From an archaeon GW2011_AR10 (lineage in GTDB: Archaea > Iainarchaeota > Iainarchaeia > Iainarchaeales > GW2011-AR10), in the NCBI GenBank assembly GCA_000830275.1, contig CP010424.1, forward strand, positions 1,140,001 to 1,172,000: a DNA stretch of 32,000 nucleotides, given 5' to 3'. Numbering within the stretch: position 1 is the first letter of the stretch; every line of letters begins with the position of its first letter. Position numbers and translations under genes: made by a program. Positions 2,271-31,516 of the stretch are shown piece by piece. Below the pieces are notes generated by a model. It had not been told where the DNA came from. It made no database searches and saw only the letters and a program-made list of their open reading frames with translations.

Positions 2271-5200
2271 ATGGGTAAAGCACAGGTGCCGGTTGAGCTG
2301 ATTGCAATTGTTGGCGCTGCAGTCTTGCTTGTAGCCATTGGAACCATTGCAGTAGTTGTTTTAAGTCTTCCTCCGACCCCTGTTCCAGTTGACGGCAATG
2401 GCGGTGTTCCATCGTCAATTGCTTGCTCTGATGGAACGCCTGCATCAAACTGCGCGGTTAAGCAGCCTTTTTACTGCGATGAAACAGGAAACCTTGTGGA
2501 AAACTTTTGCTTTGGTCTGGATAAGGCTGTTGGAACATCAGATGACTGCGGCTGCCAAGCGGAAACTGCATGCAGCAACAGCGGTGAATGCGTTCAAATA
2601 ACGTCGCTTGAGGAAATCAAGTGCTCTGACGGAACACTCGCTGGAAGCTGCTCTGCAACAAAACCTTTTTCGTGCGATGAAAACGGCGTGCTCAAGAACA
2701 GCTGCTCTGCTTGCGGCTGCCCGGATGGCTATTCGTGTGAAGCCAGTGGCTCATGTGCCCCAATTGCTCCAAGTGATGCTATTGCTTGCTCTGACGGCAC
2801 GTCTGTTGATTCGTGCTCTACCTTGAAGCCTTTTTACTGCAGCAGTTCAGGCAGCCTGTTAACAGAGTTCTGTTTTGGCCCGGACAGGGCTGTTGGAACA
2901 TCAGATGATTGCGGTTGCCCGCAATATTATTCCTGCAATTCCGAGGGAAGCTGTGAAAGCGATGTTATTTCAACCAGCAATTGTTCCGATTCCTCGCTGT
3001 TGAATACCTGCTCTCAACAGAAACCATTTTACTGCAACAGTGCAGGAACGCTTGTCAACAATTTTTGCTTTGGCCCGGACAGAGTTAGTGGAAACGCTGA
3101 TGACTGTGGTTGCGCTGCTGGTTCAGAGTGCCTTCCTGACGGCTCATGCATTGTTGCATTTGTTTTCAATTCCTGTTCTGACGGCACTGAATTCGGCAGC
3201 TGCTCTCAAACAAAACCCTTTCTGTGCAATGATGCAGGCATCCTTGAAAGCAACTGCTCTGTTTGCGGTTGCACGCAGGGCTTTGCATGCAATATTTCTG
3301 GAGCCTGCTCTCCCATTGTTCCCTCGCTTTACTGCTCTAATGGAACAAGGCTTAATTCCTGCTCTGTTCTTAAGCCAAAGTACTGCAACAGTAGCGGAGA
3401 ACTTGTTGATAACTGTGCAAGCTGCGGTTGCCCCGACAATTATTCTTGCCAGCAGAATGGCTTGTGTGCTCCAATTGTTCTGCCATCGCAGTGTTTGGGA
3501 GGAATTCCCATTGACTCTTGTTCTCAGCAAAAGCCGCTTTACTGCACTCCTGAAGGGCAGCTGGTAAATGATTGCAATAGGTGTGGTTGCCCGGAAAACC
3601 TGCCTGTATGCGCTTTTAATGGCGCGTGCCAGCCAGTCAGCCAACAGGAACCGGCTGGCTTTTTCGTGCAATTTGTTGGCGCAAACCCAACCACGTGGGA
3701 ATCAAAGACAACTGTTTTCAATTTCCCGCGAGGCACTCCAGAGAATGACAGCTGGACTGGAAGCAGAACAGCGTTGAAAGACTTGGAGCCAATGCCTGAC
3801 GGTTCAGGTTACTTCGAGTTAATGGATTACCCTTCCATTGGCGGAGCACAGATTCAGTCAAAGCCGCAGAGCATTGCAGCAAACCTGAATTTGGGTGACT
3901 GCTGGGCAAAACCGAAGCCAGTTAAACTGAAAGTCAACTCTTCCGTTACCGGTTACTACATTCTGCAGGAAACAGGGAGAGTTTGCGCTTCAAGGCTTAA
4001 TGCGTTCGGCAACACCTTAAACATTTCCCCTGCAAAAGCAGTTGACTTGGAAATTGTTGCAAATAGTTCCGGCAACGTTGTCGGCTACTACATTCTTGAT
4101 TCAACCGGAAAAATCCACAATTTTGGTGAAGCCGGTGCAACCATTGACTTGGAGCGCATTTCAACAAATGCTGAAGTGCTTGACCTGGAGTTAACTCCTT
4201 CCGGCAAAGGCGCATTTGTTCTTGACTCTCAAACAAGAATTCATGCAAGGGGAGATGCTGATGCGCTGTTTTTTTCTGGAAGCAATGCTCCCCCGGTTCT
4301 GCCGCAAGGGTACGCGCCAAAAAGAATTTCAATGCTGTTCAATGAAAGCGGCGGACTGCAAGGGTATTTTTTGTTCGATTCATTCGGAGTTGCTCATGCA
4401 AGGGGCATTGCAGTTGAATCAGATATTCCTGCGTGGATTTTCCAGAACTTTGAGGTTGATGGAGGAGTCCTTGCAGGAAACCTTCCTGATGCGGAAATAG
4501 TTGCGTTCCCTGCTTTTGCTGACTTGAGTGTTGATGAAAGAGATATTTCTGTTTCAGGGGGAAAAATTTCTGCAACCATTAAAGCAGAAAAAGGCAGGGC
4601 TTCTAACATCAAGGTGAGTTTTTTTGAGGGCGACCCTGATTTAGTGGGAAGACTGCTTGGCAGCCAAACAATTTCTGCATTGCAGGAAGGCCAGGCAAGT
4701 GTTGTGCAACTAAATTATGTTCCGCCTGCTTCTTCAGTGCATATTCACGTGATAGTTGACCCTGATAATACTGTTACGGAAACAAAAGAGCAGAACAATC
4801 GCGCCTACAAAGTTGTCAACAGGAACTTTTCCTCAAGGATAACCATTAATGGATTGAAATTAATGGATGGGGGCAGCACTTGGAACCTTCACGGAATAAT
4901 TTATTTTGGCCCACAGGGAACTCCAGGAGCTGGATTAAATTTTGGTGATTTGACTGAATGGGAGGCAAAGGCCAAAAAAGTCATTGCAGCTGACCTCAGT
5001 GAAATGCAGCGAAGAAACTTTAATGCGGTTTTTGTTTTCGGCAACTTGTGCAACGTAGGAACTGCTTTTCCGCTTTCAAAAGACAAAGTTAACGAGCTTG
5101 CAACAAACAGGTTCAAGTGGTTCATTGATCAGGCGGAACTGCGTGGCATAAGGGTTTTTGGCTCGTGCCTTAACGACGGCATTGTCCCAAAACTTGGCGG

Positions 5201-7139: not shown

Positions 7140-7295
7140 TCATTAATTTACAGAGCTGCCTTCGCCAAAAAACTTTTAAAAAAAGTTTTATCAAAAATGG
7201 GCTTCGCCATAACCTTTTAAAAAACCCTAGCAAAATCATAGATTTTGCGGGCCACGTAAACCCTTTTCAGCAAAAGGTTTGCGAAAAGTGCCTTC
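7140..7295. repeat. copy of a dispersed composite intergenic repeat, inverted relative to the 23630-23823 copy
   Basis: The reverse complement of 7229-7255 (GTGGCCCGCAAAATCTATGATTTTGCT) is identical 27/27 to 23761-23787. The reverse complement of 7275-7288 (CTTTTCGCAAACC) matches the start of the 23630 unit. Internal tandem motif: GCCTTCGCCAAAAAACTTTTAAAAAA / GCTTCGCCATAACCTTTTAAAAAA. Confidence 0.8.
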
Positions 7296-8550: not shown

Positions 8551-11500
8551 ATGCCTTCGACTTCTCCTAAGAAAAAGAAAATTGTTTCGATTAAGAGCAC
8601 GGCCGAAATTGAGGTGCCGAAAAGGCTTGTTGACCAAGCGATAGGCCAAGAGCAAGGCGTAAGCATCATAAAGAAGGCAGCAGCACAGAAAAGAAACGTT
8701 TTGCTTGTTGGGCCGCCTGGCACAGGCAAAAGCATGCTGGCGCAGGCAATGTCTGAAATTCTCCCGTTGAGCGAGCTAAAGGACATTTTGATTTACCCAA
8801 ACCATGATGACCCTAACACTCCTAAGGTTGTAACCGTCAAGGCGGGGCAGGGCAAAAAGATTGTAGATGATGCAAGGCTTGAGTCTAGGACGCAGGAAGA
8901 CAGCATCAGGCTCATTGGCTTTATTGTGCCCATTGCAATGTTCCTTGTAAGCTTTGTGGTCTGGAAGCTTGAGTGGATTCCTGATGTTGTTTTTGCTGCA
9001 ACGCTGATTGTTGTTGCGTTCCTGTTCTTCGGCTTTGCGATTGGAGCGCAGGTTAGAACCAAGTCAACTGCTGTTGTGCCAAAGCTTTTGGTCAGTAATG
9101 CAAACAAGAAGGTTGCACCGTTCATTGAGGCAACTGGTGCAAGAGCGGGGGCACTGCTTGGTGACGTGCGTCATGACCCGCTTCAGTGCATTTTACCAGA
9201 CCAACTTGTTTCATTGCCTAATGGAAAACAAGTTCAGGCATCTGATTTGATTGATCGATTTTTTGGTGAGGAAAAGAAGACGGAGAATGTATTGAGTAAA
9301 GATGAAAAGTTCAATGTTCTTAGTGGTCTTGGCCAAAAATTCTGTTACTCAAATGCCACCGTTACGAAAGTTTTCAAGAGGGACTATGAAGGTGAAATAA
9401 TTGAGTTAAAGACAAAAAAGGGCTACCATATTAAGGTTACTCCTAATCACCCTGTGGCGGTTTTTTCTGAAAATGCAGAAGTTGAGTTCATTGAGGCAGC
9501 CAAAATTAAAGCAGGGTATTTCTCGGTTGCCCCAGAGAAACTGCCAATTGATGTGAAATCAAGGCTTGATGACGCCAAAATTGTTTTGCTTGCTGACATT
9601 TTGGCTGATGGGTACATAGGGAATAGGAATGTGCAGTTCAAATTGAGGAGAGAATTCAAGGTAAAAAAAATTGAGTCAGACATAACGAATGCCGGTTTGA
9701 AGTTCACTAAAAGACTTGACGGAAAAAACATCAGAATTGACATCAATTCAGCTGAGTTCGTGAAGTGGCTCAATTCCATTGGTGCTGTGTGTAACCGCTC
9801 AAAATCCATTCCCTCAATTATTTTCGATCAAACTCGCGAAAGCATAGAGTTGTTCATAATCAATTATGTATCGCTTGATGGTTATGTGAGCAAACAAGGG
9901 CAGTTTGAGCTTCTTTCAAAAGAGCTAATTCCTGATTTCATTCCGCTGTTGTTGAAGGCTGGTTTGAAGCCAAATTACAGGCCGCGCTTGGACAGAGGCT
10001 TCAAGAAAGGCAATCTCCAGCCAAGAATAACTTTCCAGGATGTTTCTTTCGCCCAAAAATATTTCAAGCTCACTGCAAATCCATTTCACAAGAAGAACTT
10101 AGAAAAATATCTTTCAAAAACAGCTTATCATCATGTGACTTTTGATGATATTATTCCGGTAAATTTCTCTCTGCTAGAAAAGTTCAGAGACAAAACAGGC
10201 CTTTCAAAAGCAAAAGTCCACGAAGAGTATTATGCCCTGAATAAAAGCGTTAAAACTTCAAAGAGTCCTACTCGGCAGTTCCTGCAAGAGATTGTTTCCA
10301 AGTTCATGAGCATTACAAACGACCCTGAGCTTTTCGGGTTGAGGGATGTGGTACAGGGCACATTTTCCTACGATGAGATAATTGAAGTGAATAGGGTAAA
10401 TTATTCTGGGCCTGTTTACAATATGACAACTTCCACTGGAACCTATTTGGTTAATCTTGTACTAACGCATAATTCAGGGGGCTTAGGCACGCCACCTCAT
10501 TTGAGGGTTGAGCCTGGAATGATTCACAGGGTTAATGGCGGAGTTCTTTTCTTGGACGAAGTTGCAACCCTTTCTCCAAAAGCACAGCAAGAGCTGTTAA
10601 CTGTAATGCAGGAGAAAAAGTACCCTATTACTGGCCAGAGCGAGATGAGTTCTGGAGCAATGACTAGAACTGAGCCTGTTCCCTGCGATTTCGTGCTTGT
10701 TGCTGCAGGCAACTATGAGGACATCCAAAAGATTCACCCTGCGTTGAGGAGCAGAATCAGGGGCTATGGTTACGAGGTTTACATTAATCAGGACATGGTG
10801 GACAACGCTGAAAACAGGGACAAGATTATACAGTTCATTGCACAGGAAGTGAAAAAGGATGGGAAAATACCTCATTTTTCGGCTGAAGCAGTTGAGTCAA
10901 TAATTTTTGAAGCCAGGCGCCGGGCCAGCAGAAAAAACAAGCTAACCTTGAGGCTGCGGGATTTGGGTGGCTTGATTAGGGCTGCTGGGGACATTGCAAA
11001 AGAAAAAGGCCAGAAGGCAGTTGAAGCACAAGACGTCTATGAAGCAAAAATGTCTGCTAAAACACTTGAACAGCAAATGGTTACAAAGATGCTGGAGGAA
11101 AAAAAGGATTACGATGTTTACTTGTTTGAGGGGAGCGCTGTTGGGAGAGTCAATGGCTTGGCGGTTTCAGGTGACGGTGATGCCGGATTGGTGCTGCCAA
11201 TTGAGGCAGAGGTTGCACCTGCTTCAAGCAAGTCCGAGGGCAAAATAATTGCAACAGGAAAACTTGGGGAAATAGCAAAGGAAGCAGTGCAAAATGTTTC
11301 AGCCTTAATTAAGAAACTCAGCGGAAAGGATGTAAGCGAGTTTGACATTCACATTCAGTTCCTGCAGACTTACTCTGGGGTTGAAGGTGACTCGGCTTCA
11401 GTGAGCGTTGCAACCGCGGTTATTTCTGCTTTGGAGGGCATTCCCATAAAGCAGAGCCTTGCAATGACAGGCAGCTTGAGCGTTAGGGGCGAAGTGCTTC

Positions 11501-11799
11501 CAGTGGGCGGGGTTACCGCAAAGGTTTCTGCTGCAATAGCTGCGGGCTTCAAGGAAGTGGTAATTCCAAAGGCAAACAAGGATGATGTTGTGCTGTCGAA
11601 AGAACAATTAAACAAAATAAATATTGTTGCGGTTTCAACTCTTTCAGAGGTTGTTGACAATGCATTCGTTAAATCCAAGAAAACAAATGTGCTGCTCAAG
11701 AACCTGGGCAAACTTTTCTCGCTTGAGGTGCCTTCCCTGCTTGAAGGCGAGCTCGGCAAGGGAATTGTAAAGGCAGGCTTTTTATCCAAGCAAAAGTAG
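8551..11799 (+). CDS. lonB: archaeal membrane-bound Lon protease (LonB), interrupted by an intein
   Basis: Walker A motif VLLVGPPGTGKSMLAQA. A two-helix TM insertion (IGFIVPIAMFLVSFVVW...VVFAATLIVVAFLFFGFAIGA) lies within the AAA+ module, as in LonB. The proteolytic domain has GDSASVSVATAVISAL (catalytic Ser) and VGGVTAKVSAA (Lys). The extein total of 653 aa is typical of LonB. Confidence 0.9.
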   Translation: MPSTSPKKKKIVSIKSTAEIEVPKRLVDQAIGQEQGVSIIKKAAAQKRNVLLVGPPGTGKSMLAQAMSEILPLSELKDILIYPNHDDPNTPKVVTVKAGQGKKIVDDARLESRTQEDSIRLIGFIVPIAMFLVSFVVWKLEWIPDVVFAATLIVVAFLFFGFAIGAQVRTKSTAVVPKLLVSNANKKVAPFIEATGARAGALLGDVRHDPLQCILPDQLVSLPNGKQVQASDLIDRFFGEEKKTENVLSKDEKFNVLSGLGQKFCYSNATVTKVFKRDYEGEIIELKTKKGYHIKVTPNHPVAVFSENAEVEFIEAAKIKAGYFSVAPEKLPIDVKSRLDDAKIVLLADILADGYIGNRNVQFKLRREFKVKKIESDITNAGLKFTKRLDGKNIRIDINSAEFVKWLNSIGAVCNRSKSIPSIIFDQTRESIELFIINYVSLDGYVSKQGQFELLSKELIPDFIPLLLKAGLKPNYRPRLDRGFKKGNLQPRITFQDVSFAQKYFKLTANPFHKKNLEKYLSKTAYHHVTFDDIIPVNFSLLEKFRDKTGLSKAKVHEEYYALNKSVKTSKSPTRQFLQEIVSKFMSITNDPELFGLRDVVQGTFSYDEIIEVNRVNYSGPVYNMTTSTGTYLVNLVLTHNSGGLGTPPHLRVEPGMIHRVNGGVLFLDEVATLSPKAQQELLTVMQEKKYPITGQSEMSSGAMTRTEPVPCDFVLVAAGNYEDIQKIHPALRSRIRGYGYEVYINQDMVDNAENRDKIIQFIAQEVKKDGKIPHFSAEAVESIIFEARRRASRKNKLTLRLRDLGGLIRAAGDIAKEKGQKAVEAQDVYEAKMSAKTLEQQMVTKMLEEKKDYDVYLFEGSAVGRVNGLAVSGDGDAGLVLPIEAEVAPASSKSEGKIIATGKLGEIAKEAVQNVSALIKKLSGKDVSEFDIHIQFLQTYSGVEGDSASVSVATAVISALEGIPIKQSLAMTGSLSVRGEVLPVGGVTAKVSAAIAAGFKEVVIPKANKDDVVLSKEQLNKINIVAVSTLSEVVDNAFVKSKKTNVLLKNLGKLFSLEVPSLLEGELGKGIVKAGFLSKQK
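9187..10473 (+). mobile_element. 429-aa intein with a LAGLIDADG homing-endonuclease domain inserted in lonB
   Basis: The N-junction is GDVRHDPLQ / CILPDQLVSLPNGK (Cys1, residue 213) and the C-junction is LVNLVLTHN / SGGLGTPPH (His-Asn then Ser+1, Asn at residue 641). Block B is VTPNHPV. Two LAGLIDADG-type motifs are present (LLADILADGYIG and INYVSLDGYVS). Removing it restores the contiguous LonB sequence DPLQ-SGGLGTPPHLRV. Confidence 0.85.
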
Positions 11800-17752: not shown

Positions 17753-17840
17753 ATAGCAAACAGCTTATTTTTTGAACTTTTTATTTCTGTTTGCTAGATG
17801 CAAAACGCAATTTCAATGCTCAATTACTTAAGCGTTTTGC
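17753..17840. repeat. copy A of an ~88-bp long-range inverted repeat containing two 9-bp-stem hairpins
   Basis: Its reverse complement aligns to 31429-31516 at roughly 90% identity (about 8 mismatches or indels by hand alignment). The hairpins are AGCAAACAG-N23-CTGTTTGCT (17755-17795) and GCAAAACGC-N23-GCGTTTTGC (17800-17840). The second includes the rpiB stop codon and its last 5 codons. Confidence 0.85.
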
Positions 17841-18276
17841 CATGGATTGCGTCAATTTTTTTTACGCGCCTGCGGTGCCTTTCCTCTAAGCTAAAATCCG
17901 TGCCCAGAAAGGAGTCAACCATTTCCAGTGCTTCCTTTTCCTTGCTTACTCTTGCTCCCAGCGATAAAACATTTGCGTTGTTGTGCTCCCTCGCCATCCT
18001 TGCCATGTACTCGTTTGTTGCCAGAGCAGCCCGAATTCCTTTGACCTTGTTGGCTGCCATTGCAGTGCCAATGCCTGTTCCACACACAACAATGCCAATG
18101 CTTTTAGGGCTTTTAGCCACTTTTTCAGCCACTTTAACCGCGAAATCAGGGTAATCGCAGCTTTTCTCGCTGTCAGTGCCCTCATCCACGACCTCAAACC
18201 CTTTTCTTTTGAGGTGTTCTTTGATTTTTTCTTTCAGCCTGAAACCGGCGTGGTCTGCTCCAACGATGACGCGCAT
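17824..18276 (-). CDS. rpiB: ribose-5-phosphate isomerase B (RpiB/LacAB family)
   Basis: MRVIVGADHAGFRLKEKIKEHL...GIVVCGTGIGTAMAANKVKGIRAAL...AREHNNANVLSLGARV is the canonical RpiB sequence pattern, including the catalytic Cys in CGTGIG. Confidence 0.9.
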   Translation of the reverse strand: MRVIVGADHAGFRLKEKIKEHLKRKGFEVVDEGTDSEKSCDYPDFAVKVAEKVAKSPKSIGIVVCGTGIGTAMAANKVKGIRAALATNEYMARMAREHNNANVLSLGARVSKEKEALEMVDSFLGTDFSLEERHRRRVKKIDAIHGKTLK

Positions 18277-18351: not shown

Positions 18352-19074
18352 TTGATTGAACTGAAGAACACTTCCCCTTTAAGGAAGAGCATTGACGCCA
18401 TTTCAGCATTCATTTCAGAGGGAAACTTTCGCTTCAACGAGCAGGGCATTCACTTCAAGGCAATTGACCCGAGCCAGATTCTCCTCGTGAACCTTTTTAT
18501 GGACAAGAAGCACTTTGACTCTTTCAGCGTTGAGCCGACATTTGTCGGGGTTGATTTAGTGGAATTAAGCAAAATCATGGCTAGGAGCCTTCCAACCGAC
18601 AAGCTGAGAATAGATTTAACTGACTCTGAAATGAAGGTGAAGCTTGAAGGAGACTTCCACAGGAGCTTCAAGCTCCCATTAATTGATGTGAGCGAGGACG
18701 AAATAAACCTTCCAAGTAAAACCTATGATGCCTCTATTGAAATCAGCGCGCGCATAATGAAGGAAGCCTTGAAGGATGCTTCCTTGTTTGGTTCAAGCGT
18801 TATATTCAAAGTAAAAGGCAGCCAGTTTTTTGTTGAGGCGCGCGGCAGCCAAGGAACCCTGGATGCGGTTTCAAAGGAAACGAAGGGAATAAAAGTGAAG
18901 GCTTCAAAGGACGTAACTGCAAAATTTTCTCTTAACTTCCTGCAGAACATCATAAAAGAAGCAGACGCAGAGGAAAAAATTTTGCTTGAGCTGAAGACTG
19001 ACGCGCCAATGAAAGTTTCTTACAACATCGGCAAAAACAGGATTGAATTCTTTTTAGCCCACATGCTCCTATAA
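18352..19074 (+). CDS. DNA polymerase sliding clamp PCNA, paralog 2 (divergent)
   Basis: RKSIDAISAFISEGNFRFNEQGIHFKAIDPSQILLVNLFM...FKLPLIDV...MKVSYNIGKNRIEFFLAHM is collinear with paralog 1 at roughly one-third identity by eye. It has a TTG start and lacks the acidic C-terminal tail. Confidence 0.8.
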   Translation: MIELKNTSPLRKSIDAISAFISEGNFRFNEQGIHFKAIDPSQILLVNLFMDKKHFDSFSVEPTFVGVDLVELSKIMARSLPTDKLRIDLTDSEMKVKLEGDFHRSFKLPLIDVSEDEINLPSKTYDASIEISARIMKEALKDASLFGSSVIFKVKGSQFFVEARGSQGTLDAVSKETKGIKVKASKDVTAKFSLNFLQNIIKEADAEEKILLELKTDAPMKVSYNIGKNRIEFFLAHMLL

Positions 19075-19278
19075 ACGGAGAGGTCCGTTTACGACCTATA
19101 TGTGTGCCATCTTCGATGGCACGGTAATTTTGCTCCGTTCGGCTGAAACCTCAGCCGGCAAGGTGTGGAATACTCGTTTCACTCGTATTCCACTGGCTCG
19201 CTTCGCTCGCAAAACGGAGAGGTCCGTTTACGACCTATATGTGTGCCATCTTCGATGGCACGGTAATTTTGCTCCGTT
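19073..19278. repeat. two perfect 67-bp direct repeats (19073-19139 and 19212-19278) separated by a 72-bp hairpin-rich spacer
   Basis: AAACGGAGAGGTCCGTTTACGACCTATATGTGTGCCATCTTCGATGGCACGGTAATTTTGCTCCGTT occurs twice with no mismatch. Each copy contains the 8-3-8 palindrome GTGCCATC-TTC-GATGGCAC. Confidence 0.9.
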
Positions 19279-19299
19279 TACGAGGTGCGGCATCTTCGA

Positions 19300-19356
19300 T
19301 AACTGTTAAGGGATACGATTTTTAACTGTCAAGGAATACAATCTTAACTGTCAAGG
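19300..19356 (+). repeat. three tandem 22-23-bp repeats ending 15 nt upstream of the priL start
   Basis: TAACTGTTAAGG at 19300, TAACTGTCAAGG at 19323 and TAACTGTCAAGG at 19345, with related spacers (GATACGATTTT / AATACAATCT). Confidence 0.8.
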
Positions 19357-19370
19357 CAGGGGTTGTTGAA

Positions 19371-20405
19371 GTGTTTTCAGTGGAAGAACTTAGATTCGCG
19401 CAGAAGTACCCCTTTTCTTCAACTGCAAAAAGGGTTGTAAGGCAATCCAACCTTTCACTGGGAGAACTTCCAGTGGAAGTAATTGAAAGAGCGGAGGTGC
19501 TGGTGCGCAATGCACTCCAAGGCATTGAATATAAAGCCAACGTTGTTTCCTCCCAGGGATTACTATTAAACGAAGTGCTTGCATTTCCAGTTGCAAAAAT
19601 TATTGTTTCATGTATTGGAAAAGATGAAGCGATAAGAAAGTTTTCTGTGCTGATTGCTGCCAATACTTTGAGGCACTTGGAGGCAGAGCAACCTGAAACG
19701 CTTTTTGCGATTGCAGCTGACCTAAGCATAAGATTTGATCTCTCTGAAGGGGGGCAGGAGTTTGCAAGGGTTGTTCTCCCTGATTTTTTGGCAGCTGGAA
19801 CAAAGGACGAGTTCATGAAGCTTGTGAACAAGAAAGTCGAAAAAGGAAAGGTTGTTTTGAGCCGTGCATCATTTGAAAAATTTTTGTCCTATGCGGTTGA
19901 AAAAAATGTTTTAAGCTCACTTCCAGTGGATGTTACCGGTATTCCAAAAAATTTTGGAGAAATTTCCAGGCGGCTTTATAGTGGAGCAGTAGAGCAGCAG
20001 AAAAAGCAGTTCGAGGGCATTCCATCCGGGAAAGTTAAACCAGAGTTTTTTCCGCCATGCTTTAAAAGGCTCTACAGTGACATATTGGTTGGCAAAAAAC
20101 TCGGCCACATTGAAAGGTTCAACCTTGCAACTTTCCTGCTTGCAGTCGGAATGCCGCAGGAGAGAGTGATTGACTTATACAAGGCCACTCCAAACTTTGA
20201 CGAGAACACAACAAGGTATCATGTGGCGAGGCTGGCTGGCCGTTCAGGCAAACAGTACTCTGCTTCGAGTTGTTCCAAGCTGGCAGAGTACGGCTTAAGG
20301 TTGCCTGACTGCCCCTGCAATGCAAGCACAAAAATAAAGCACCCGCTGCAGGTTTACCGTAAAGCATTTTCCGAGAAAGACTCACCAACCCAAAATGAAG
20401 CCTAG
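19371..20405 (+). CDS. priL: DNA primase large (regulatory) subunit PriL
   Basis: FPPCFKRLYSDI...HIERFNLATFLLAVGMPQERVIDLY...TRYHVARLAG...YSASSCSKL...CPDCPCN is the PriL Fe-S cluster domain pattern (Cys ligands plus the conserved helix). The start is GTG. Confidence 0.85.
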   Translation: MFSVEELRFAQKYPFSSTAKRVVRQSNLSLGELPVEVIERAEVLVRNALQGIEYKANVVSSQGLLLNEVLAFPVAKIIVSCIGKDEAIRKFSVLIAANTLRHLEAEQPETLFAIAADLSIRFDLSEGGQEFARVVLPDFLAAGTKDEFMKLVNKKVEKGKVVLSRASFEKFLSYAVEKNVLSSLPVDVTGIPKNFGEISRRLYSGAVEQQKKQFEGIPSGKVKPEFFPPCFKRLYSDILVGKKLGHIERFNLATFLLAVGMPQERVIDLYKATPNFDENTTRYHVARLAGRSGKQYSASSCSKLAEYGLRLPDCPCNASTKIKHPLQVYRKAFSEKDSPTQNEA

Positions 20406-23403: not shown

Positions 23404-23466
23404 ATGGCAGCAAAAAAGAAATCATCTTCAAGAAAATCAAGCAGCAGATCTAAATCTAGAAGATAA
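23404..23466 (+). CDS. candidate micro-ORF encoding a 20-aa Lys/Ser/Arg-rich peptide (MAAKKKSSSRKSSSRSKSRR)
   Basis: GGGAGGT (23391-23397) lies 6 nt upstream of the ATG. An in-frame alternative ATG is at 23386. An A/T-rich TATA-like stretch (23364-23385) lies upstream, and a hairpin plus T-tract follows directly downstream. The ORF is too short to judge by composition. Confidence 0.35.
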   Translation: MAAKKKSSSRKSSSRSKSRR

Positions 23467-23595: not shown

Positions 23596-23823
23596 GTAAT
23601 TCCACTCCACTGTTTCCAGCGAAGCTGCGTTTTCGCAAACCTCCTCGTAAAACCTTTGGTTTTGCCGAAGGCAATTTTTCGCAAGCCTCCTTGCAAAACC
23701 TTTGGTTTTGCGAGACCCGCAAAATCTATGATTTTGCTTGGGTTTCCTAAAAGGCTTTATGTGGCCCGCAAAATCTATGATTTTGCTTGGGTTTCTTAAA
23801 AGGTTTTAAAACGGTGGAATTAC
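23596..23823. repeat. MITE-like 228-bp element: 10-bp perfect terminal inverted repeats enclosing two internally duplicated units
   Basis: The terminal inverted repeats (TIRs) are GTAATTCCAC (23596-23605) and GTGGAATTAC (23814-23823). Unit A occurs twice (23630-23665 and 23676-23711, 33/36 identical). Unit B occurs twice (23716-23754 and 23765-23803, 38/39 identical). Unit B also occurs inverted at 7229-7255. Confidence 0.7.
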
Positions 23824-31377: not shown

Positions 31378-31428
31378 TATATTATATTAAGCTTATCAAT
31401 ATTATACTGTTTTGGTTTTATATTTATA

Positions 31429-31516
31429 GCAAAACGCTTAAGTAATTGAACATTGAATTGCGTTTTGCATCTAGCAACCAGCAGCATAAAGTTCAAAAAT
31501 ATAAGCTGTTTGCTAT
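31429..31516. repeat. copy B of the ~88-bp long-range inverted repeat
   Basis: GCAAAACGCTTAAGTAATTGAACATTGAATTGCGTTTTGCATCTAGCAACCAGCAGCATAAAGTTCAAAAATATAAGCTGTTTGCTAT matches the reverse complement of 17753-17840. It includes a relic of the rpiB 3' end (KTLK-stop) with no ORF attached. Confidence 0.85.

Follow-up and report, generated by a model that had tools for sequence, protein, structure and literature searches.

Short structured elements that follow or separate genes are known from several groups of prokaryotes. Pyrobaculum offers an example: in 23 cases the stop codon of a gene is provided by the small RNA gene that follows it, and small RNA genes there can also share a transcript with tRNAs and change loci (PMC6009581). 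Such hitch-hiking archaeal C/D box small RNA (sRNA) genes, found in Pyrobaculum and Nanoarchaeum, are about 60 nt long, lie on the sense strand, start at or inside an upstream stop codon or a few nt past a tRNA, lack a dedicated promoter and have paralogues that move between loci (PMC6009581). In Haloferax volcanii, hairpins occur upstream of some transcription termination sites, and one such hairpin terminated 59% of reporter transcripts (PMC7237163). Bacterial repetitive extragenic palindromic (REP) sequences and bacterial interspersed mosaic elements (BIMEs) are short imperfect palindromes that stand in small arrays downstream of genes or within operons, vary in copy number between strains and are thought to be stabilisers of RNA 3′ ends or terminators. 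We describe here a repeat, designated R, in a 32,000-nt stretch of the genome of the archaeon GW2011_AR10 (contig CP010424.1, positions 1,140,001 to 1,172,000; hereafter the window), where it lies between the replication genes pcna2 and priL. R is a member of a low-copy family of ~60-nt structured elements in Iainarchaeia, a class of the DPANN archaea. DPANN archaea have tiny, compact genomes, and to our knowledge almost no non-coding RNAs or cis-elements have been described in them. We found no earlier description of the R family in Rfam 15 or in the literature searched.

The resemblance of R to each of these systems is partial. R shares with the hitch-hiking sRNA genes its size, its strand and its place at the end of an upstream gene. 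Unlike them, it has neither C (RUGAUGA) nor D (CUGA) boxes in any aligned member, has no kink-turn (k-turn) and adopts a two-hairpin fold; its unpaired segments are conserved rather than variable, and they are therefore not guides. Like the Haloferax sites, R is a structured element at archaeal gene 3′ ends; unlike R, the Haloferax hairpins are not a conserved sequence family (PMC7237163), and R for its part has an inconsistent T-tract and is known here from sequence alone. With REP and BIME elements R has in common the position of its imperfect palindromes, 3′ of genes or intercistronic, the arrangement in small arrays and a strain-variable copy number. It differs from them in being archaeal, in its very low copy number as against hundreds (the window, the 10 kb beyond it and ~195 kb of related loci yielded no additional one), in a three-helix fold with conserved loops and in that no gene for a REP-associated tyrosine transposase (RAYT) was seen in the window or in the loci examined. 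This positional feature of REP and BIME elements is the only one that R was found to have among the classes tried; in behaviour it resembles REP sequences and the hitch-hiking archaeal sRNA genes, with a three-helix fold of its own.

At the pcna2-priL locus R is a 67-mer (AAACGGAGAGGTCCGTTTACGACCTATATGTGTGCCATCTTCGATGGCACGGTAATTTTGCTCCGTT) that opens with AAACGGAG and ends in CTCCGTT. It occurs exactly twice in the window (R1 and R2), with no mismatches, a period of 139 nt and a 72-nt spacer (S) between the copies, and re-checking the sequence bore out the preliminary description of an exact 67-bp direct repeat that starts inside the pcna2 stop codon. The first base of R1 is the second base of the TAA of pcna2, a gene for a PCNA paralogue (18352-19074; Pfam PCNA_N and PCNA_C), while R2 ends 92 nt before the GTG start codon (19371) of priL (19371-20405; Pfam DNA_primase_lrg). 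The gap between the two genes is 296 nt in the window and 157 nt in a one-copy allele that is treated below. The 19-nt palindrome of R is found at these two sites alone in the 32 kb, where shuffles expect none, and other fragments of the repeat region were not detected elsewhere in the window with blastn-short. All hairpins listed in the preliminary description exist as sequence, and in folding the 251-nt region surpasses shuffled sequence by a wide margin (z = -5.3 for the plus strand and -7.5 for the minus strand). A degenerate third unit (D) is likewise present, with an 88% match over 16 nt and a weak covariance-model match at 19272-19284. With the helices numbered as in the comparison given further on, the locus reads as follows.

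19072-19074, plus strand: stop codon TAA of pcna2, overlapped by the first base positions of R1
19073-19139, plus strand: R1, first 67-nt unit, an exact repeat with the family core at ~19073-19132
19081-19097, plus strand: H1 of R1, AGGTC-CGTTTAC-GACCT, a 5-bp stem with a conserved 7-nt loop
19098-19130, plus strand: H3/H2 module of R1, where conservation within the family is highest
19140-19211, plus strand: S, 72-nt spacer, in the two-copy allele only and absent from the strain loci L004-L008 and L010
19146-19165, plus strand: Y block, the 20-mer AAACCTCAGCCGGCAAGGTG within S, found also after R copies at a tRNA-Glu locus
19212-19278, plus strand: R2, second exact unit, with H1 at 19220-19236 and the H3/H2 module at 19237-19269
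19273-19303, plus strand: D, degenerate partial unit, overlapping the last 6 bases of R2 (19273-19278)
19300-19356, plus strand: 22-nt unit TAACTGTCAAGGAATACGAATCT in 2.5 tandem copies just upstream of priL

A family around R emerged from comparison with other loci. The pattern TCCGTTTACGA-N5-15-CATCTTCGAT was scanned over species-representative genomes and Joint Genome Institute (JGI) metagenomes, both scans resting on this one stringent pattern, and it retrieved three true relatives, most other matches having arisen by chance in bacterial genes. The first (locus L019, Ca. Iainarchaeum) begins in the TAA of a DUF1858+HesB/IscA gene; the second (L029) precedes a 16S rRNA gene by 120 nt; and the third (L045), one base different from the R of the window, stands 2 nt after an intron-containing tRNA-Glu gene and heads an array of R, a D-like unit, a second diverged R and then the Y block. 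A covariance model built from these sequences then found more members, including one between the divergent genes rpiB and pcna2 in L014 and one 4 nt after tRNA-Pro(CGG) in L058. The whole-element model scores 86.7 bits on the R1 copy, and a 3′-module model scores 49.9 bits on H3/H2. At the HesB locus a copy follows the stop codon directly in L019 (100% HesB identity), in L059/L060 (74%) and in L061 (57%), a remodelled copy is present in L058 (70%), and no copy was found in L062-L064 (55%). The register of the window, a stop codon followed by ACGG, recurs at the HesB locus in L019 and L058. Since ~195 kb of related Iainarchaeal loci, the window itself and 10 kb beyond it contained no further copies, the family is low-copy.

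Some of these loci carry further related sequence. At the tRNA-Glu locus the D homologue (L045) has 7/8 H2 pairs intact, whereas D of the window retains a 3-bp H1 (CTC-CGTTTAC-GAG) and has a broken H2. The Y 20-mer is directly 3′ of an R unit both in L045 and in L046, a contig from the same sample as the window-species contig L005. L046 has the same downstream part as L045, but the stretch that precedes its R unit differs in sequence and contains a further Y block, which hints that the tRNA-Glu locus also varies in unit number. The tRNA-Glu(UUC) gene itself (L045 887-1017, minus strand) contains a 55-nt intron and was missed by the default mode of ARAGORN; GCTCGCTA at its 3′ end recurs in degenerate form before other R copies, including at the 3′ end of S in the window. 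Note also that the 11-mer TCGCTTCGCTC is present both in the 3′ end of S (19198-19208) and in the loop of the remodelled hairpin behind the HesB gene of L058 (10640-10672).

The fold was examined on eight distinct copies aligned over 61 columns, and three helices hold: H1 (5 bp, loop CGUUUAC), H3 (4 bp, formed by RUAY of the linker and RUAY of the tail) and H2 (8 bp with a triloop, plus an invariant U·G pair). Over all helices, comprising 18 pairs, 95.8% of the cells are paired and nine pairs show changes on both sides; none of 500 shuffles matched the observed covariation score or the percentage paired, and slid registers were only 32-50% paired. Changes on both sides affect three of the five pairs of H1 (GGTC/GACC, GATC/GATC, CCTC/GAGG, GCTC/GAGC) and six of the 13 pairs of the H3/H2 module, which is 96.7% paired and has the layout ATAT-G-U·G-(GTGCCATC TTC GATGGCAC)-G-TA-ATTT. 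Seven different H2 stems occur, every one of them fully paired, and H2 and H3 are separated by a purine-purine position, alternating between G·A and A·G, and by a bulged UA. Only on the sense strand of pcna2 and priL do the invariant U·G and the remaining G·U pairs hold. No known family accounts for this fold, as Rfam 15 gave no matches over the whole window at gathering thresholds or within 18950-19450 at E<=10, and at the related loci it detected tRNA and small-subunit (SSU) rRNA only; thus the check that had been proposed for the region came out negative as to a known Rfam family and positive as to covariation across related loci.

The comparison also sorted the individual hairpins that had been listed. 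The 5-bp hairpin with its 7-nt loop survives as H1, by virtue of its changes on both sides, and the 8-3-8 palindrome survives as H2, with compensatory changes. The closing stem AACGGAG/CTCCGTT found no comparative support, being limited to window-type copies, and because CTCCGTT(TAC) is the start of the next, decayed unit D, it is not a true closing stem. Comparison gave no support either to the two perfect hairpins contained in S (19140-19157 and 19166-19193), the first of which lacks its 5′ arm where the Y block recurs. The alternative hairpin AAACGG/CCGTTT does exist as sequence; it is mostly invariant, so that the comparison says little about it in either direction, and in L014, where the arms are CAACGG/CUGUUG, the pairing is retained. 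The 5′ part of R may possibly switch between two states, H1 and this alternative hairpin. Further structural candidates were put aside: inspection by eye led us to reject both a pseudoknot joining the 3′ tail to the H1 loop, since a G-to-A change in that tail is uncompensated, and a k-turn where H2 meets H3, since the internal loop is without tandem G·A pairs. A complementarity of CGUUUACG to the conserved GUAAACG of 16S rRNA was dropped because the loop of L014 differs.

The position of the copies follows a pattern. In five independent loci R starts no more than 4 nt from the end of a co-directional upstream gene, namely pcna2, HesB (four species), tRNA-Glu or tRNA-Pro, and the copies that lie between tandem genes are co-directional with them in 3/3 cases. 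The tRNA-Pro case is unbiased, because the L058 locus had been fetched for its HesB gene. Exceptions to the 3′-flank position are the copies in L014, between divergent genes, and in L029, upstream of 16S.

The pcna2-priL locus is moreover polymorphic among strains. Ten near-identical loci (99.3-100% identical) from independent assemblies were found through the exact PCNA2 protein. Three of them (L001, L003, L009) have the R-S-R form of the window, and six (L004-L008, L010) have a single R followed directly by D and are exactly 139 bp shorter. The last (L002; DUFG01000013.1, GCA_013332025.1) has 43 N inside R (3746-3788) and otherwise matches the window at 100%. It could be argued that the two-copy structure is an assembly artefact, as this gap inside R might suggest, or a miniature array akin to the clustered, regularly spaced short palindromic repeats known as CRISPR, since the layout of repeat, spacer, repeat and degenerate terminal repeat is that of a CRISPR array. 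We regard either idea as scarcely credible. Both alleles are seen in several independent assemblies made with k = 127-141, the one-R contigs mostly with k=141, and as these k values exceed the 67-nt length of R, collapse by the assembler is unlikely for either form; R-S-R in three independent assemblies and a clean single R in six others thus rule against the artefact that the preliminary description had asked to be checked. As for CRISPR, these arrays need repeats of ~23-55 nt with unique spacers of similar size, whereas here the repeats are only two in number and 67 nt long, and the single spacer, of 72 nt, has a 20-mer in common with other R arrays. Furthermore, Pfam scans of all large open reading frames (ORFs) detected no cas genes, S had no match in viral contigs, and scans of viral contigs with the palindrome, a spacer hairpin and the family pattern gave only two chance matches, in coding DNA. 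A 69-aa ORF that runs across R1, S and R2 had no matches among 1.8 billion proteins. The gap exactly at R in a public metagenome-assembled genome (MAG) is a caution for users of MAGs.

One- and two-copy alleles occur on common single-nucleotide polymorphism (SNP) backgrounds. The nearest markers are the same on both sides in L003 (two copies) and L010 (one copy), L008 and L009 have left-side markers in common, and over the 3788 nt of left flank that BLAST aligned, L007 (one copy) does not differ from the window. Since flanking SNPs fail to separate the alleles, the insertion/deletion is recurrent or has been moved by recombination. The perfect 67-nt repeat is probably a recent duplication, and the one-copy form is most simply explained by recurrent deletion between two identical direct repeats of 67 nt.

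The explanation that we favour, with a confidence that lies in the middle of the range, is that R would be a structured RNA on the sense strand, made as a 3′ extension of the upstream gene, with a 3′-end or hitch-hiking sRNA role, and that its array would be unstable. The covarying stems with conserved loops, the strand-specificity, the abutment on 3′ ends and the retention at the HesB locus at 57-74% identity point in this direction, and the idea of structured small RNAs voiced in the preliminary description fits in so far as copies at unrelated loci keep the three helices by compensatory changes. R would be transcribed together with the gene that precedes it, and it could then either define or protect the 3′ end of the transcript, in the role of a module for termination, processing or stability, or be set free as a small stable RNA, hitch-hiking on the promoter of the preceding gene. 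In the lineage of the window the element would have been inserted between pcna2 and priL, and the local array of R, S, R and D may have proved unstable, the R+S unit being lost repeatedly, and possibly regained, through recombination or slippage between R copies, so as to yield one- and two-copy strains. What the data show is the exact repeat, its variation among strains, the family with its fold and the placement of its members; we infer from these comparisons that the folded molecule is RNA, how it may act and by which mode units may be gained. Several observations weigh against this explanation. The family comprises ~10 distinct sequences, and some of the alignments were fitted to the model; covariation alone cannot separate an RNA from a single-stranded DNA hairpin; and the copy in L014 has no co-directional upstream gene and stands upstream of what is likely a leaderless promoter of rpiB, so that its transcription is not obvious. 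Several members have a short T-tract behind H2 or none: it is T4 in the window and T6 in L059, with only T2-T3 within ~15 nt in L019, L014 and the tRNA-Glu copy L045b, so that a simple hairpin-plus-U terminator finds no consistent support across the family. Lastly, the explanation does not account for the gain of an R+S unit, and no donor copy of S was found.

The main rival explanation, which we hold to be distinctly less probable, is that R is a small non-autonomous mobile DNA whose single-stranded hairpins are recognised by a transposase or recombinase, in the manner of palindrome-associated transposable elements (PATEs) derived from IS200/IS605, of REP sequences and RAYT, or of attC sites, and that the R+S unit is gained and lost through the same enzyme. 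The sporadic presence of R at orthologous loci, the recurrence of the R+S change on common haplotypes, the difference upstream of the R unit at a second locus (L045 versus L046), the strand-specific structure with conserved unpaired bases, as in transposon-end hairpins, and the other short dispersed hairpin repeats of the window all agree with it, and the earlier proposal of a small mobile or duplicative element does fit the facts that unit number differs among strains and that copies occur at unrelated loci. Like archaeal MITEs (miniature transposable elements with inverted repeats) and PATEs, R is small, intergenic, hairpin-bearing, dispersed and present or absent between close strains. Unlike them, it has no target-site duplication flanking any copy and no consistent target sequence, its terminal inverted repeats (AACGGAG/CTCCGTT) are unconserved, being confined to window-type copies, and no matching transposase was encountered: Pfam scans of large ORFs gave no transposase or integrase in the window, and neither the window nor the locus DNA examined contains tnpA or tnpB. 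Palindrome elements of the IS200/IS605 type have subterminal hairpins that a Y1 transposase recognises and insert 3′ of a fixed target of 4-5 nt; in R hairpins are present, and the 5′ flanks of the copies differ (CCTAT, CGCA, CGCT, CACT, AGTG). The copy number is also very low, with none more in ~195 kb, and R has been kept at an orthologous locus across species, since its retention at the HesB locus at 57-74% identity, with covarying stems, looks like vertical inheritance under selection. Derivation as a MITE from a neighbouring insertion sequence (IS) was rejected too, the IS beside the L019 copy having ends unrelated to R. That IS (L019 789-1691; DDE transposase of 250 aa) has 18-nt terminal inverted repeats and adjoins the R-bearing HesB gene. 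Integron attC sites resemble R in being structured sites that come right after a stop codon; unlike them, R lacks the R″/R′ consensus, its end 7-mers fitting neither RYYYAAC (R″) nor GTTRRRY (R′), and the window has no integrase. A cassette-like variant combines the two ideas: R units would be RNA-coding modules that double as their own recombination site, in expandable arrays at the 3′ end of tRNA genes and of protein genes, with units and short spacers being added or removed at pcna2-priL and tRNA-Glu by no known enzyme. We consider it doubtful, and less probable still than simple mobility.

Comparison with relatives bears on the distribution of R at this locus as well as on the idea that it serves replication. 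The closest relatives of PriL are only ~50% identical, and homologues of PriL and of other window proteins are annotated as Candidatus Diapherotrites or Iainarchaeum (DPANN), with groundwater metagenomes as sources. The gap between pcna2 and priL is 0 nt in L011, 11 nt in L057, 12 nt in L014 and 47 nt in L051, and it is 175 nt in L012/L013, where unrelated hairpins fill it. The covariance model detected no R in any of these gaps, and in all R is missing from pcna2-priL in seven relatives, as it is from rpiB-pcna2 in the window. The gaps of the relatives being mostly short and free of R, the element is an insertion into an otherwise tight gene pair, and R is lineage-specific at pcna2-priL. It splits, variably among strains, a gene pair that abuts in relatives, and it could in this way alter the expression of priL. 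The hairpins of L012/L013 (2826-3000) comprise CAACCTTTT-AGG-AAAAGGTTG, which occurs twice, CAGTTTCAG-CAAAA-CTGAAACTG and others, and this unrelated set indicates that the same site was colonised independently.

The absence of R from the relatives' pcna2-priL gaps is at odds with a further alternative, in which R would be a double-stranded DNA site for a dimeric protein, either an operator of priL or sites like the origin recognition box (ORB). Such a site could explain why the AAACGGA/TCCGTTT arms and several blocks are invariant and why R2 is only 92 nt upstream of priL, and, like archaeal ORB origin repeats, R stands beside replication genes, the window containing a cluster of two PCNAs, PriL, PriS and GINS51. 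The window also has somewhat more ORB-like TTCCAGTGGAA words than expected (12 versus 5.4). Nevertheless the palindrome stems change compensatorily, including by G·U pairs whose counterpart on the opposite strand would be A·C, which is not the behaviour of a sequence-specific duplex site, and the element also lies behind HesB genes and tRNAs, not solely near replication genes. Unlike ORB repeats, R has no match to the ORB consensus TTCCAGTGGAAA with <=2 mismatches within 19073-19303, the region has a GC content of 0.44 without an AT-rich dip, and no orc1/cdc6 gene was found nearby, the search having covered the 32 kb and the adjoining 10 kb on one side. Such ORB-like TTCCAGTGGAA matches as are nearby fall within the coding sequence of priL. 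The alternative is thus largely refuted and seems to us very unlikely, and the earlier suggestion of a priL operator or ORB array is left without support. The mini-ORB-like TTCCAGTGGAA words in priL are at 19375-19386, 19468-19479 and 19921-19932; the first of them encodes the conserved N-terminal FSVEEL, so that coding constraint is the likely reason for it. The tandem TAACTGTCAAGGAATACGAATCT repeats between D and priL, which fall outside the R family, are possibly the priL promoter or operator region.

A tRNA or tRNA-like gene was also rejected as an identity for R, given that ARAGORN, run both with introns allowed and without, reported none in the window and that relaxed settings produced absurd models with introns of 137-192 nt. 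The present comparison adds a structural motif backed by covariation, together with two covariance models, and this motif marks the 3′ ends of tRNA genes and mRNAs in one DPANN class. Should R be a true 3′-end signal or a stable sRNA, it would offer an entry to the study of transcript-end formation in organisms that as yet cannot be grown alone; should it be mobile, it would be a rare hairpin element under structural selection in a reduced genome.

Hairpins are frequent in the window as a whole. Perfect hairpins with a stem of at least 8 bp and a loop of 3-7 nt number 12, versus 2.7 in shuffles; 11/12 lie in intergenic DNA, which makes up ~12% of the whole, and the type with 8 bp and a 3-nt loop accounts for seven. 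Hairpin-rich spacers seem to be a general trait of the source genome. A second dispersed repeat has a unit of ~49 nt (GGYTTTRYGWGRCCCGCAAAATCTATGATTTTGCTTGGGTTTCYTAAAA) that includes an 8-3-8 palindrome built as in H2; it forms a tandem pair at 23704-23801 (plus strand), between an ATPase gene and priS, beside a 46-nt tandem pair (23630-23711), and it has a 93%-matching inverted copy between convergent genes at 7211-7267. A sequence of ~75 nt is present as an inverted pair (17769-17843 and 31426-31499, 89-94% complementary) in unrelated intergenic regions. The gene for LonB protease (8551-11799) carries an intein (Pfam Intein_splicing, residues 221-641). Finally, the long spacer between the ATPase gene and priS contains a possible 20-codon ORF (23404-23466) rich in Lys, Ser and Arg (MAAKKKSSSRKSSSRSKSRR), behind which come a hairpin rich in GC and a T-rich run.

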